Below, piece after piece: positions 3,321-56,200 of a stretch of 64,000 nucleotides of DNA. Origin of the DNA: Schmidtea polychroa (Eukaryota); assembly GCA_044892525.1 (NCBI GenBank), contig CM097887.1, positions 31,992,001-32,056,000 on the forward strand, in the 5' to 3' direction. Under the pieces are notes generated by a model. The model had not been told where the DNA came from. It saw only the letters and a program-made list of their open reading frames with translations, and did no database searches. The stretch's first letter is position 1; every line of letters begins with the position of its first letter. The translations under genes and the position numbers were made by a program.

Positions 3321-4590
3321 TATAGAATAGATTCTTCCAGTAGCCATATGCTTAACTCGGAGATAAGGCCGTAAATTTCTTAATAAACTGAAAAGGACTT
3401 TAAAACCGTAGACGGCTCGTTATAACAGCAATGGTCTGAGAGATTCTATCATTTTACCACTATAGCTAATATTTTTAAGAATGCCGTGACTCACATATTT
3501 ATTAGATCAATATCAACATTCAGGTATTTCGGTGAGTCTGAATAATTTATACTCATTATGTACGACCTTTATTTGAGCAATTTATTGAGCAAATAAATCA
3601 CTACAGTTAGAACAATATAGTCAATCTTAAGATTTATTATTCAAATAACATAATTATACAACTCTTTAAATAGAGTTTGCCTAATCACTAACTAATTTTA
3701 TTGGATTACGCAATGTACAATTTAGTTGATAGTTCATTCGTTCTTTGATCTTTCATGCAATAACTCCTACAATATTTGTGAGAAAATGGAAATCAGTGTT
3801 TTATTCTACAGGAGTCTGAAAATCTGCGACCGTATCCACGAAAAGCAACAGGCACCTAATTATCCTATACCGGTTCTGTGAGGTAGTGACAAAAAATAAC
3901 GAGATGGATACTAGTAGTTTTATAATTGAAAATAGAACATTTTAAATACTTTGTTAATTATCAATTGAAGGACAAAGCTGGTGCCAAAGGCTCAGAAATT
4001 CCAGCTCCAATATTAAATTAGTTGCTGTTAAAAACTCAGTTTAAATTAAGGAAATGTGTGGTTTTAAATATGTAATTGAAAGCAATATTTGTTTCTTCGA
4101 CGAGATGTATACCTTTGATGCTCTTTAATTTGTGTTGAAGATGAGTGACAAATTAACTTTAATAAAACTTCAAGTAAAAATGATAATTAGGTGATTATGA
4201 AAATAAACTTATATACAAAATATATACAAAATCTAGTAATCCTAAACTTCAAATTCCTTGTTTTGGCAATTCTTTAGTTAATGAAGGTGGGGAAAGTTCT
4301 TTGTTGACAATGTAAATAATTCTATTAAATCTTTGGGTTTTGATAATGTTACGCACAGGTAATGAATTAGTACACTTCAGGAATTGTGAAACATTTTCCT
4401 CCTATGAATTGTATAACGACATTGAAAATTACGTTAACATCCAAAGAAGACTGTTAAACGAATTGTCATTAGACCAAAAATTGTAAGTTATATGAATCAG
4501 ACCGATTTTGTTAACTTCTAAAATTTACCTGATGAAAATTTTATTTTTATAATACACTATCAATAACATCGGAATAAGTTTCATTTTTTT
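3321..4590 (+). pseudogene. Degenerate, internally deleted 18S (SSU) rRNA gene copy
   Basis: Colinear eukaryotic SSU landmarks: 5' end (GATTCTTCCAGTAGCCATATGCTT, 3330-3353), exact GAGGTAGTGACAAAAAATAAC (3880-3900), GGTGCC...AATTCCAGCTCCAATA (3980-4012), V4 GATGCTCTTTAATT...TAACTTTAATAAAA. The 530-loop GTGCCAGCAGCCGCGGTAA is corrupted to GTGCCAAAGGCTCAGAAA. The match is strong to about 4170 and weak after that; the 3' boundary is approximate. Confidence 0.8.
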
Positions 4591-15398: not shown

Positions 15399-16164
15399 TT
15401 ATAATTTTCTATAAACATTTAATTTTATATGCAACTGTAGGAACATTAGACTATTTGGTAAAATATATTGATCATTATTGGTTTTATCAAGTTCTTCATA
15501 AGTGGATCGAGTAGATTTGAGTAACTCCGACGTTTCCATTTCTATTGGATGATCGGATTCCACATCTTTGTACAAAGTATATTTGGTGTTTTTGAGATTT
15601 TGCTTCACAACACATTTCTTTGAGAATCTTTGATCAATAACATATTGTTCCTGAGAAGATATGATATTTATAAAGTATTTAACTGATTGTCTATTGTAAT
15701 CGATTGATTATCGTTTTTCTGATTCTCATTTACGGTATTGACTTTTTGATGTTTGTTAAAATGTTGAGTCTATCAATTCCATTGTTGAACCAGTTTCAGT
15801 AGTTCCTTTAACAATACATTTGTATGAAGCTAAATCCTCTCTTATCAATTCATCGAAAGTAATCTTTTCATCATTTCTAATTGATTGACTGTTAATGTAC
15901 CAAGTGTATTTTTCAAGTGTATATTTTCAAATTTAGGAATAACCTTTCTTTGCATACTACTCCTATCTTTAGGTTGTTTGGATATTTGATTGCGATGGGG
16001 TAGTCTTCATTATCCGAGCGTGATAGTTGATTTGTTCTTGATGCATCCATTGACTGGATGTTCTGTGATCCGACGACGAGTAGGAGGCACAGCATCAGCG
16101 TTACGAAATTTATTGTTTGTAATGTAAATTCGAGATAGAGGTGATGCATTTGATTGATCCTCAA
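15399..16164 (-). pseudogene. Disrupted secreted or surface immunoglobulin-domain protein
   Basis: Hydrophobic leader (MLCLLLVVGSQ). After removing a 13-bp tandem duplication (about 15901-15927) the frame reads VVCKERLFLNLKIYTWYINSQSIRNDEKITFDELIREDLASYKCIV (Ig C...W...D-x-x-x-Y-x-C). Further frameshift and stop downstream. Confidence 0.6.
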
Positions 16165-16704
16165 ATTGTTCTAGTTACAGAGTTTTGAGCACATTTTTGA
16201 ATTAAAGAAGAATTCGACAATATATTTCGACAAACTCACTGTCATCTTCAGGTAGAATTGTAATTCAAACTAAATTAATCTAAATTTACTCTTTTTTAAA
16301 CAAACTAATTCATTAATTTTTTTAAATAAAATTTTGCTAAAATATCATAAAATCGTGTTTTCTCAATTCAAACTTTCAAAATTCACAAAAGTTGAAATCA
16401 AACAACATTTCAATAAATTTTTCACAAAATTGTGTTTACTAATATAGTGCCTCTTTTTACTTATTTATTTATATATAAGATTATAATTTACTTTTTGGAT
16501 ATATATCTGTAAACTTGTAAACATGGCGTATGAAAATAACCTCTGGAGACCAAAACATAGTCTATACACAGATATTTTTTCTGTGAATTAGCTGTGATGT
16601 GATTTCCAATGTACCAGGTAAAGTATGCAATTTAGTTGATTTAGCATTATTAGCATTAAGTATACTTACCTGGCGCGAAGAGAAATCTTCGCGTCTCCTG
16701 CGTC

Positions 16705-16740
16705 GTACTGATGAGAGCCAAAAGCTCGAAACTAGTCTAC
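16705..16740 (+). ncRNA. Minimal type-I hammerhead ribozyme
   Basis: GTA-CTGATGA-GAGC(CAAAA)GCTC-GAAA-C-TA-GTC-TAC: complete CUGAUGA and GAAA core, 4-bp stem II, palindromic stem III (ACTAGT), GUC cleavage triplet (C16737), and stem I GUA/UAC. Confidence 0.85.
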
Positions 16741-17399
16741 TATTGGGATTTGCACTGGGTATCACAAAGCTTGTAATGTTTATATTATTCAAATGTTAGA
16801 CATCCGTAAAAAAAAAAGGGTTCACTGTATAATTAAAAATCGTTTTCTATTTTGAATAATGATGCATTTATTTATGTTAGTATTATCATTAAACTTTAAC
16901 AGCATTGATCATAAACATAAAATGGAACCCAGTGCCCACAGAATTTAGTTTGACCCCTACAAAATGTTTTGGTTTCTCAGCAACACTCATAAAAAAGCTA
17001 CAATAATAATGATATTTTTATCACTTATTATAAAAATACAAATAAATAAACAAATAATTTAAAATACTCAAGCATTTACAGTTGCATGATTGCAGTTCTA
17101 ATAAATTTTAAATAAAATCTAACTATTTTATTGTATTAAATATATACAGGACCGCTTCTAGCTGAAATTGGCCGCTCTCATTAAAGCAAATGTTTTATAC
17201 AAAATACATTTATGTAGCTTTTATGCAATATAAATAATGAATAAATAATAAATAAAAAAAAGTTTTTATTTTTGTTTAAATAAGCGGAAGATCGATCTTT
17301 TCAATAACGCACGAAATAACAAATCCAGCAGCAACAGCCAAAACCCAATTCAATGAAAAACTTGGAACAGAATACGAACCATCTCATCTATACAATCGC

Positions 17400-28675: not shown

Positions 28676-29052
28676 TTATAATTTTATCATAATTACAAGT
28701 CAAAACAGAACCTCAATTAGGTTTTGTTTTTACTCCCGTTATGGCGCCCTTAACGTCATGAAATAAAGTCTTTAAAAAACTATATAGCGATAATTTACTA
28801 TAGTAAATTATCGCTATAGTAAAAATGAAAAATCAAAAAAAATCAATAGTCAAAAGTCAATTATATAATTCAAGAGACAATTACCAGAAAATTTGCTATC
28901 TTACGAATTTTTCATCTGAAATTTCGCCCCCGATCTTCAGAAAATAATTCAAAATATATCTAGATATATCTATCAAACAAAACGAAGGATTGCGAAACAT
29001 TTTCTAAAGTAAAATTCCTCGGAAACTATTCGATACCAAACATTTTGGTACA
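28676..29052 (+). repeat. 5' LTR of element B (first about 12 bp missing)
   Basis: 4 substitutions and 1 indel versus 38971-39358 by manual comparison; ends GGTACA. Confidence 0.93.
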
Positions 29053-38970: not shown

Positions 38971-39358
38971 TGTAGTAGAATGTTATATTTTTATCATAAT
39001 TACGAGTCAAAACAGAACCTCAATTAGGTTTTGTTTTTACTCCCGTTATGGCGCCCTTAACGTCATGAAATAAAGTCTTTAAAAAACTATATAGCGATAA
39101 TTTACTATAGTAAATTATCACTATAGTAAAAATGAAAAATCAAAAAAAATCAATAGTCAAAAGTCAATTATATAATTCAAGAGACAATTACCAGAAAATT
39201 TGCTATCTTACGAATTTTTCATCTGAAATTTCGCCCCCGATCTTCAGAAAATAATTCAAAATATATCTAGATATATCTATCAAACAAAACGAAGGATTGC
39301 GAAACATTTTCTAAAATAAAATTCCTCGGAACTATTCGATACCAAACATTTTGGTACA
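38971..39358 (+). repeat. 3' LTR of element B (388 bp, TGTA...TACA)
   Basis: Starts TGTAG after the polypurine tract and ends GTACA. Confidence 0.95.
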
Positions 39359-52775: not shown

Positions 52776-53067
52776 TTAATACGATTCCAAGCCAGTTAAA
52801 CGTTGGAAATATATAGCAATGTTATATTTTAATATACTTAGCAATTTTTTATTATAAAAAAGTAAGAAAATTAATTTTTTTAATTTGCCTTAAATTTTAC
52901 AATATAATAAAATATGCTTTAGAAATAATTTGTAAATAATGATAAAAATGCCTTCGAAGTTTTATAATTTGTGAATGTATTGATATTTGTTTTTAAAAAT
53001 TTTGATTTTTATTTATGAAATTACTGTAATAAAACAATTTTGGTGAAAAATATATTATTTGCATTAA

Positions 53068-53275
53068 CCTCTTAAGTGGCTATGACGGATATATACGTCA
53101 TCAACATATGCATTACAAAACGCATAAGACGAATAAAAATATATCATAAATATTACTTTTGTTAACATATCATCCAATAAGATATTATTTTATTTTTTGT
53201 AACCCTACGCTAGCGGATAACAAAACTCGCCGCTGAGGAGCGCATTTCGTTTGACGAAATAAACCACTTAAGAGG
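53068..53275. mobile_element. piggyBac-like MITE, TTAA TSD
   Basis: TTAA|CCTCTTAAGTGG ... CCACTTAAGAGG|TTAA. Confidence 0.88.
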
Positions 53276-56200
53276 TTAATATATAGATCAATGAAATTTG
53301 AAATTATATTTTTCCTATTATATTTAAACTATTGAAGAGCTCCTCAAATTTTATTTAACATTAGGTAAATTTGAAATTTCTAAATTAATAATTACTTAAA
53401 ATATTACGAGTAATAATTTTAAATAAAATAAACTATTAATAGAATTTTAATTATTAAAATTAGATTAAAACTAAAATTTAATATATGTAGAAAGAAATTC
53501 AGTGAAAACTAATGTTTTGCCCATAATTTTGTTATAATAAATAATTCGTTAAAGCAACAATCTGAAAATTCCTCAAATGTGGTAACTATTGGGATTAATA
53601 TCCACCCAGAATAAAATAACGCTTGAAAAATCCATCTGATAAAAATATTCATTTTACTTATAATAACTAGAAAGACGAATATGACGTTTGTTTGTATATT
53701 AATATTCAAATAGTTATCTTACAAATTTGATTTACTTTATTTTCGTATTCGACCAGGAAGCATAGATTCGATGGGATTAATTCTCATTGTCAATCTCGTT
53801 TTTTAATAATAGCTTTCAGAATTAGGTACTTCCGTGTTATCTTACCCCCAAAAATTAAATTAAAAAGGAACACATAATTATTATATTTATTTTCTAAATC
53901 ACAGTTACAAACTCAGCAAATGTTTGTAAAGAGTTTGTAAATGGTCATCCAGGTAATGTAATCAGTATTTTAAATTTATTTTCTATAATTTTTCTATTTC
54001 TTTATTTTATTAGTAAAGTTTTGTAATAAAAAATCCCTTTTGTCACTGAATAAAATTTAATCTTTACATAAAACATTGACTGCCTACTATGAGATAAATC
54101 TTAGTTAACATATCAGAAATAGTCAGAATTTCAGTGAAGGTGTCAAGTACAAGAGAAATCAGCATTAATGTCAAATATAAACTTTATTAAATATTGAAAC
54201 AATAATTTAATTGAATTCTAACTACAAAATTAAATTAAAAGAATATGCCTCTCATATTGTATATGTTACTTAAAATTGTTTTGTTTACGTGATCATATTA
54301 ATTCATTTTAGTTTATATCGAAACCATTAAGGAATGAGATACGCAATACGTAAATAGAAATTGATCAAGTTTTCAATGAAAATGTTCAAGTCATTGATAC
54401 AAACAATAATTTCAAAGACTTTCTAATCTTACCACAAATTACATTCATATGTAGAAAAGTTGTTTGTCTCGTTGTTTATTAATAAACGGCATTAGCAAAT
54501 AGATATAAAAGTATGTTCTAATAAATGATTTGAAGTAATAGAAAATTTTGGGAATTCTACCTGAATCAATTCAAAAATAGAAATTTGTTTACAAAAATAA
54601 AAGTACAGGGAAATTTAATATGAATAATTAAAAAAATATTTAAATCGTCCAATTCGTCTCGTTTCTGTCAATTTTCCCAGTTATTAAATATTGATGACAT
54701 CAATTAATAATTCATATGTATTTTGTGCCTTATCCTATATCAAAGGTTCAATTCATTGAACTGAAATATTTGGATGGAAATATTTGAAATAATTAATTAG
54801 GATATTAGTGATAGGGATTTATTCCTAGCATTATAGAAATTTCCTCAAATTGGGTTGGAAAATTTGTTATGATTTTACTATATTCGGATCGCATCCTGCT
54901 TCGTTTTAGGCATAAAAGCGTTATTTATTGAAATAAATTAAATAAACAAAAAGTATTCAACAGTTGAGAATAGTTTTGAAATTGTCATTTTCTACTGAAA
55001 GTTTCAATTTTGCCTTTCTGACAGTATATTGAAGTAAAACAATTGTGAGAGATTTATATTTGTAAGCAATTATAAAATTAAACTTCTAGGGCAATTTTAC
55101 ATATAGTGCAAAACAGCTCAATAAATTATGATCAGAGGACGTAGAAACATTTTTATATTAAAACAAATTTCTTACTGTACAAATAGTACTTGAGCCAAAT
55201 TTAAATAATACTTTACTATTCAAATAAATTCTAATTATTTTTTAATTGGATATATAAAAATGTTTTTCTTGATATGATTCAATCAATATGTTCTCTTTTG
55301 CATATTTATGATACTTGTCTGACACTGGAAGTGGGAGAAAAATTAAGAATATTTCCAAATGAAAATGCCTAGATATCATAGAAAAATATCTAGAATGAGT
55401 GCTGCAGATAAATTCAACATTCCTTATTCAACATTCCTTACCAAAAAATATATCTAAAAAAAGAATTTATTAAAAATATGCTTATTGAAAAAAAGAAAAA
55501 ATTTGAAGAAAAATCAAGCGAATGTCTAAAATTATGAATGATGCTATTACTGAAAAAAAGAAATAATTATAGGAAAACCTAAAGTTTTAATCAGCAATTA
55601 ATGAACGTAAGAAAACAGGTAAAGTTATTTATTACATCAGGTATTAAAAAATTGTAATCTGTGTATGGAATGCAAATGATCCATTAAGAATAGAATGAAG
55701 AGGATAAAAAGATTTCTTCTTTAGAATACATGAAAGAAATATCGAACGTGTGAAATGTTATAATTATCGTGGATAACTTAACCTTTCATAGGTATTCGGA
55801 AGCAGTCTAAATATCACAGAATTGTGTTTACCCCAATATATTCCATATACTTTATGCTATCTCATTGAAGAGCATTGAAGAGCATACTCCCCAGAAATCC
55901 ATTACCGATATTTAATTAATGCGATATATCAAGACAAACAAAAAAAGCAATCAAGAAATTAAGTAAATAATGTAGTTTTCCAAGAATTAAGTTATTTCCT
56001 TTATTTGAATTAGTATATATTCTGATAATTTAAACAATATCAATTTTATATTTGTTATAATTATGCTGTGTCAGGTTCATTAAGTAAGTTCCAATTTAAA
56101 ATGAATTAAAAAAATATATATCTTTTCTTAAACTAAGTTTTGAAACGAACATTGACAACATAAATAATCATGAAATCTTTTGTTGTTTGTTTACTTTGGT

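Follow-up and report, generated by a model that had tools for sequence, protein, structure and literature searches.

The hammerhead motif at positions 16708-16737 of the window, the 64,000-nucleotide stretch of Schmidtea polychroa DNA analysed here, is assigned with a probability of roughly 0.85 to one truncated, 5'-inverted copy of a non-coding repeat of 371-383 bp, which has at least 873 copies in the genome and is most likely a non-LTR retrozyme, predicted to spread through a Penelope-type reverse transcriptase (RT) acting in trans. This most likely assignment, made from sequence and calculated folds, rests on the unit itself, its copy number and layout, the insertion signature, the stem lengths, the predicted fold and the presence of an intact Penelope element in the genome. 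The family is a new, non-coding representative of a known kind of element, with one added part, a fragment of the 5' end of U1 snRNA. A hammerhead alone would be ordinary, such repeats having been described across animals. The U1 fragment points to a single base, 76 nt before the cut, where capped 5' ends would bear on what transcribes retrozymes. The coordinates of all features are collected in Table 1.

Table 1. Features of the retrozyme copy in the window and the basis on which they were placed
Feature	Position	Strand	Basis or remark
5' piece of the insertion, about monomer positions 132-214, inverted relative to the rest	16503-16572	-	BLASTN against family loci
Direct part of the copy, running from near monomer position 220 across the hammerhead and into the next unit as far as about +76	16568-16815	+	BLASTN
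Upstream arm, imperfectly complementary to U1 nt 1-12 and to the bases immediately 5' of these	16614-16631	+	Minimum free energy (MFE) and alignment folds of family copies
U1 snRNA 5' fragment	16662-16680	+	Identical to host U1 over nt 1-16; differs from the tandem-array U1 variant at one of nt 1-19
GAAA-capped 9-bp hairpin, 5' strand formed by U1 nt 12-19	16673-16694	+	Sequence, folds
Type I hammerhead	16702-16743	+	Sequence, Rfam, copy alignment, fold
Stem I	16702-07/16738-43	+	Window copy damaged at 16702 and 16704
Core CTGATGA	16708-16714	+	Sequence
Stem II GAGC/GCTC, 5-nt loop	16715-18/16724-27	+	4 bp, sequence
GAAA of the hammerhead	16728-31	+	Sequence
Palindromic stem III ACTAGT	16731-36	+	Sequence
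Predicted cut after C17 (C16737), end of the GUC triplet	16737	+	Sequence
Tail past the predicted cut	16738-16815	+	Ends within the second 3'-end cluster of the family (+74 to +97)

The first-pass annotation, which had proposed a stand-alone, minimal hammerhead ribozyme with an intact catalytic core, was right about the parts of the motif: all core nucleotides, the 4-bp stem II, the GAAA, the palindrome and the GUC triplet are present in the sequence. With a core of the CUGANGA type, the GAAA, an NUH triplet and three stems, the motif has the composition of a type I hammerhead, and its palindromic stem III is as described; it is regarded as real and above chance. The GC-richer surroundings were also confirmed (30% GC in the 1-kb bin containing the hammerhead versus 26% in the bins on either side), and no second copy lies nearby, this core being present once among 10 loose core-pattern matches in the window. 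A comparison with Rfam, proposed as a check, did return hammerhead matches, all of which fell below the gathering thresholds: Hammerhead_HH9 for the window copy (16693-16757, 22.7 bits against 52, E 0.41) and Hammerhead_1 for family copies (L070, 27.4 bits against 34, E 0.0025).

Across 70 copies, a sample partly picked for an exact core, the hammerhead core is nearly invariant. The family ribozyme has a stem I of 6 bp, a stem II of 4 bp and a palindromic stem III of 2 bp and is, by its sequence, of the canonical metazoan form, unlike the minimal form found in Penelope elements (the two forms are defined in the available text of PMC4209133); with a 6-bp stem I in the family, the description as minimal is misleading. 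Intactness, for its part, extends to the core of the window copy and stops at stem I, where 16702 departs from the A of the family (68 of 70 copies) and 16704 is a C unique among the 70 copies, 67 of which have A. Stem I pairing is predicted at no more than 0.07 in the window copy versus 0.95-1.0 for five of the six pairs in two family copies. Because of these two substitutions and the predicted loss of pairing, the ribozyme of the window copy is probably inactive. Two copies of the ACUAGU palindrome could form a 6-bp duplex (predicted, -6.2 kcal/mol), which is the arrangement required by cleavage as a dimer.

A search of the genome for the 30-nt core yielded 873 exact matches versus none for the reversed control, and a search with 16560-16860 gave 1,553 candidates; among the 40 that were scored, the best show 85-91% identity over about 250 bp. 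In the 65 loci mapped, 5' extensions re-enter the sequence found 3' of the hammerhead, so that the unit of 371-383 bp is closed. Spacings are 383, 383, 371 and 378 bp; one locus (L070) is a trimer with identical units, the longest array among the loci mapped, and four others (L078, L124, L125 and L126) are dimers, while most copies are dispersed and truncated. The unit is low in GC (37%), and no shared coding sequence or ORF adjoins the copies at any of the 65 mapped loci. The family thus combines the attributes of a retrozyme, namely a non-coding unit and one type I hammerhead in each; tandem repetition with two or more complete hammerheads is seen in the trimer and the four dimers, and not at the window copy. 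The proposed check of copy number and tandem arrangement was therefore positive, and the earlier suggestion that the motif marks a retrozyme-like family is borne out, whereas its stand-alone character is contradicted by its position within an insertion of 313 bp (16503-16815) belonging to a high-copy repeat. The two parts of this insertion meet at an inversion junction which, as read from the sequence, is a short overlap at 16568-16572.

The first-pass annotation had also considered a self-cleaving RNA retained by the host beside an Ig-like gene. Two points would be in keeping with a domesticated RNA that regulates the neighbouring minus-strand gene: a minus-strand ORF whose start resembles a signal peptide has its first methionine near 16149, with the insertion lying about 355 bp upstream, and the U1 piece reads as a consensus 5' splice site on the minus strand. 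Such a role is nevertheless extremely unlikely, since the copy is a 5'-inverted, truncated insertion at the identity to its best matches given above, carries private damage in stem I together with a 9-bp deletion and an 8-bp insertion, and gives no sign of being better kept than other copies.

Variation within the family is unevenly placed. Differences between subfamilies affect none of the 19 columns of the U1 head and none of the 36 columns of stem I and core, and are found in 37 of 210 columns at unit positions 41-250. In an alignment of 30 copies, the hammerhead stems scarcely vary, and several subfamily changes are one-sided and preserve a pair. Covariation, suggested earlier as a check, is weak: both-sided changes occur in 2 of 76 predicted pairs, none of them within the hammerhead stems, and the covariation term is -0.31.

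The marks left by insertion are of the Penelope type in appearance, with clustered 3' ends, 5' truncation, adjoining inversions and AT-rich targets. Among 83 distinct 3' sides, a tally skewed to long tails by 30 loci picked for likeness to the window copy, 9 enter the next unit, and the others stop past the predicted cut, 32 of them at +46 to +61 and the remaining 42 at +74 to +97. An AT microsatellite lies within 40 nt of 29 of 74 3' ends, and the 3' flanks are 86% AT. The 5' ends of 105 heads (tandem units counted singly, copies selected for an intact head) are scattered across 0-550 nt, and an inverted piece of the element adjoins 34 of them. Penelope-like elements are known for partial tandems, adjacent inversions, tails and microsatellite targets (Craig 2021, PMC8557442, as far as the available text goes), and the available part of Frangieh 2024 (PMC11167929) describes a Penelope protein that initiates reverse transcription internally in its RNA at AT-rich targets. 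At several loci (L073, L075, L080, L128 and others) the 5' end or an inversion point lies at unit positions 325-346, a GC-rich hairpin 5' of the hammerhead, as if reverse transcription had stalled there.

The genome contains a Penelope family with an intact ORF of 862 aa, in which the RT is matched with an E value of 4.7e-12 and the GIY-YIG match is weak and below cut-off (E 0.012). Loci of this element (L121-L123, L130 and L131) include tandem and inverted copies with a minimal hammerhead, across which the frame remains open, and the family is apparently young. The ribozyme of this intact Penelope family differs from that of the retrozyme unit, and BLASTN of the unit against 35 Penelope loci, all retrieved with one GIY-YIG query and hence representing one Penelope clade, gave no match at E<0.05. 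Because the sampled Penelope differs in ribozyme and has no DNA similarity to the unit, the partner Penelope is a putative one. The window itself holds a Penelope relic at about 51.7-52.5 kb on the minus strand, with a different, minimal hammerhead-like motif; the earlier statement that the two are unrelated in sequence proved correct.

The unit might, alternatively, be a solo pseudo-LTR of an unseen autonomous Penelope family, as the first-pass annotation had allowed. The insertion signature, which matches that of Penelope elements, would fit such an origin, as would the derivation of retrozymes from pseudo-LTRs put forward in the available text of bioRxiv 10.64898/2026.07.22.740005, and the Penelope sampling covered a single clade. 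This is judged decidedly unlikely, given that the 5' extensions at the 65 loci wrap round a closed unit and in no case enter a shared coding sequence, that the sampled Penelope loci lack BLASTN similarity to it, and that the hammerhead is canonical and not of the minimal Penelope form. In addition, a pattern search for further hammerheads sharing this stem III gave 115 matches, and among the 100 listed nearly all are, by eye, single-base variants of the family.

If the element is a retrozyme, its tandem arrays would be transcribed, and hammerheads in the transcripts would pair through the ACUAGU palindrome, each cutting after GUC and freeing unit-length RNA that would then be ligated into a circle. 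A Penelope RT/GIY-YIG protein would nick AT-rich DNA, and cDNA synthesis would begin within the RNA, either about 50 or 75-95 nt beyond the cut site. All copies read across that site, so the template would have to be circular RNA or a multimer left uncut. The 5' truncations and inversions could then result from early stops and strand switches.

These properties may be compared with those of described hammerhead elements, as given in the available texts. Metazoan non-LTR retrozymes have units of 150-450 bp, and of 350-390 bp in mussel (Cervera and de la Pena 2020, PMC7229834). Like them (PMC7229834; Li, Clavereau and Pollet, bioRxiv 10.64898/2026.07.22.740005), the present family has a non-coding unit with a single type I hammerhead, tandem and solo copies, low GC, strong predicted self-pairing and Penelope elements in the same genome. 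Unlike them, it consists mostly of dispersed, truncated copies with Penelope-type inversions and arrays of at most three units among those seen, and it carries the U1 5' fragment, which is mentioned in neither main text as available. With the hammerheads of Penelope pseudo-LTRs (Cervera and de la Pena 2014, PMC4209133; PMC8557442; PMC11167929) it shares, according to the accessible parts of these sources, the palindrome in stem III that suits cleavage as dimers, tails 3' of the ribozyme, truncated 5' ends, adjoining inversions and AT-rich or microsatellite targets, but it differs in having no ORF in the mapped copies, stems of 6/4/2 bp and no sequence in common with the sampled Penelope.

The U1 fragment, overlooked by the first-pass annotation, starts 46 nt 5' of the hammerhead core and 76 nt before the predicted cut. 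Positions 16662-16677 are identical to the first 16 nt of U1 in 4 of the 13 host U1 loci examined, and 18 of 19 nt agree with the tandem-array U1 variant and likewise with a decayed U1-like start in an snRNA gene cluster. The chance of the U1 match is 5.6e-8 per monomer, and that of nt 13-16 alone is 0.001-0.004. A pattern combining the U1 head with the start of the core has 1,076 genomic matches versus 0 for the control; the 100 listed among these were all recognised by eye as members of this retrozyme family, and 70 of 87 hammerhead copies carry the head in register. Contigs of a further organism (organism B) hold a diverged form, in which the U1 head is kept, the 3' strand of the GAAA-capped hairpin is changed and the triplet is GUA. 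The match is limited to nt 1-19, the U1 body (stem-loops I-IV and the Sm site) being absent and Rfam giving no match to U1; by its sequence, the piece was very probably derived from host U1. A candidate remnant of U1 stem-loop II at 16749-16757 was rejected, as it comprises only 7 nt and the folds pair these inside the unit. A retrozyme with a U1 fragment was found neither in literature titles and abstracts nor in the main texts looked up, a range that stops short of the PMC7229834 supplement with its retrozyme sequences; the term snRNA occurs once in the available main text of PMC7229834, in the reference list, and not at all in that of bioRxiv 10.64898/2026.07.22.740005.

The U1 genes of the host (L031-L043 and L155, located at C1:78.84 Mb, C1:80.76 Mb, C2 and C4:74.0 Mb) are themselves unusually diverse, with at least five sequence types. 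Some begin with AAAC and not ATAC, and some are altered inside the tip that pairs with splice sites. One type forms a tandem array of more than 30 units of 1.77 kb, and another is linked to U4 in a 2.07-kb array. The decayed U1-like start lies on the minus strand of L033 (679-701), within the snRNA gene cluster, and is followed by non-U1 sequence without a hammerhead.

The resemblance to U1 might instead be fortuitous: if the sense strand had carried a splice-donor-like motif that was folded back in copying, its complement would necessarily resemble the 5' end of U1. The upstream arm is indeed a near-complement of the head and contains CAGGT in some copies, and the complement of U1 nt 1-11 is a donor. 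However, CAGGT is present in only 13 of 64 arms, the arm matches the complement of U1 worse than the head matches U1, the arm offers no template for nt 13-16, whose match has the low chance given above, and two U1 variants as well as the decayed U1-like start in the snRNA cluster agree with nt 17-19. An incidental origin is consequently considered very unlikely.

With regard to what the U1 letters do in the retrozyme, predicted folding offers the most immediate information. The fold of the 383-nt monomer has a z score of -9.35, none of 100 shuffles being equally stable, and in the circle at 20 C 74% of the unit is predicted to be paired. For family copies, the prediction is that the upstream arm binds the U1 fragment in circular or tandem RNA: in the full-unit folds, the partner of U1 nt 1-12 is the arm, at about -47 to -30, and that of nt 12-19 is the 3' strand of the GAAA-capped hairpin, so that the fragment is paired on both sides in all of them. 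In organism B, the 30 nt before the U1 head differ, yet they read as a 12-bp hairpin, as judged by eye from the majority string of 7 contigs (agreement 0.75), and the predicted flanking hairpin is preserved there through compensatory change. Capture of the U1 piece on a single occasion by RT template switching, followed by its retention as part of two helices beside the ribozyme, is tentatively put at somewhat under even odds. Because the full-unit folds pair the fragment and organism B retains the hairpin, such a structural role has more direct support than capture of a promoter. The arm, on the other hand, has drifted, with four variants common among 64 copies and a pair lost in two of these variants, while the U1 letters are fixed; this suggests constraint on the letters themselves and counts against a purely structural role. 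Some other role of the U1 letters is unlikely. If the piece is only a captured fragment, it would still document that an RT once switched template to a spliceosomal RNA and that the product was fixed, in two or more organisms, within a ribozyme circle.

In the main rival account of the same retrozyme, the U1 piece is the captured start of an snRNA gene and the unit possesses its own snRNA-type promoter, from which Pol II would start at U1 +1 and read round the unit, the released circles carrying the promoter internally. This is a possibility of appreciable weight, though well short of an even chance. The first matching base is U1 nt 1 itself, preceded by a pyrimidine like that of every U1 gene examined, and organism B keeps the U1 head while the neighbouring sequence changes. 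A W-ATG-Y-A-W motif is found upstream in 10 of 13 host snRNA promoters, at -70 to -68 in six of them, and a variant stands at -67 in 4 of 5 copies of the element; but this variant alters a base fixed in 10 of 10 host sites, the pattern was loosened after the site had been seen, and the weight-matrix scores at -67 fall short of significance, with tail fractions of 0.07 for the old subfamily, 0.38 for the young one and 0.83 for the window copy, where the site is lost. In 26 comparisons with the 13 snRNA promoters, the lowest p being 0.05, no upstream similarity was detected; of 105 insertion 5' ends, a single one is placed at +1, and the region from -45 to -1 is accounted for by the RNA hairpin.

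Among the host U1, U2, U4 and U5 genes (L031-L041, L136 and L146-L155), the octamer-like motif near -69 is the sole shared upstream feature seen (10 of 13) and is a candidate proximal element of this animal group. A Gibbs motif search of the 13 promoters gave no clean positional motif. An insect-type PSEA proposed at 16600-16620 was discarded, as the host snRNA promoters look unlike it.

Precedents exist, to the extent that the available texts describe them. Satellite 2 of newts is a hammerhead repeat of about 330 bp that cleaves as a dimer (PMC7229834) and is reported to have an internal snRNA-type Pol II promoter (PMC2220036, citing Coats, Zhang and Epstein 1994), which favours the captured promoter. 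The present element resembles it as a hammerhead repeat, its promoter being putative where that of the newt is reported, and differs in its U1 coding fragment, which the citing accounts available do not mention for the newt. SINEU elements are crocodilian SINEs with heads derived from U1 or U2, for which acquisition of snRNA pieces via template switching has been discussed (Kojima 2015, PMC4494074, available in part). Like SINEU, the element is a non-autonomous retroposon with a U1-derived piece and with transcription that is likewise unexplained. SINEU, however, has 5' heads, is linear, is flanked by target-site duplications and has no ribozyme mentioned in that text, whereas the present U1 piece, of 16-19 nt, is internal to a closed unit and is located 76 nt 5' of the cut.

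Taken further, the promoter account would have a selfish RNA circle firing from its own snRNA-type promoter at U1 +1, with the hammerhead shedding a capped RNA of 76 nt, which is rather doubtful. If true, retrozyme transcription would be explained, and about a thousand loci would be able to make a U1 decoy: the free U1 tip of the 76-nt RNA could pair with 5' splice sites, while in the circle the arm would mask the U1 letters.

On the opposite strand, 16662-16674 reads as a consensus 5' splice site, on the same strand as the neighbouring host ORFs, and the same applies to about 1,000 other copies. A 5' splice site consensus placed in this way at more than 1,000 dispersed positions could affect host transcripts.

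Other repeats were observed elsewhere in the window. An element of about 215 bp with terminal inverted repeats lies between TTAA sites at 53064-53279 and resembles a MITE of the piggyBac type. The stretches 28860-28990 and 39170-39300 are identical; they lie about 10.3 kb from each other and enclose a region containing Tc1-like and hAT transposase frames. A decayed fragment resembling small-subunit rRNA is located at 3695-4011 (Rfam E 6.5e-4, below the gathering score).
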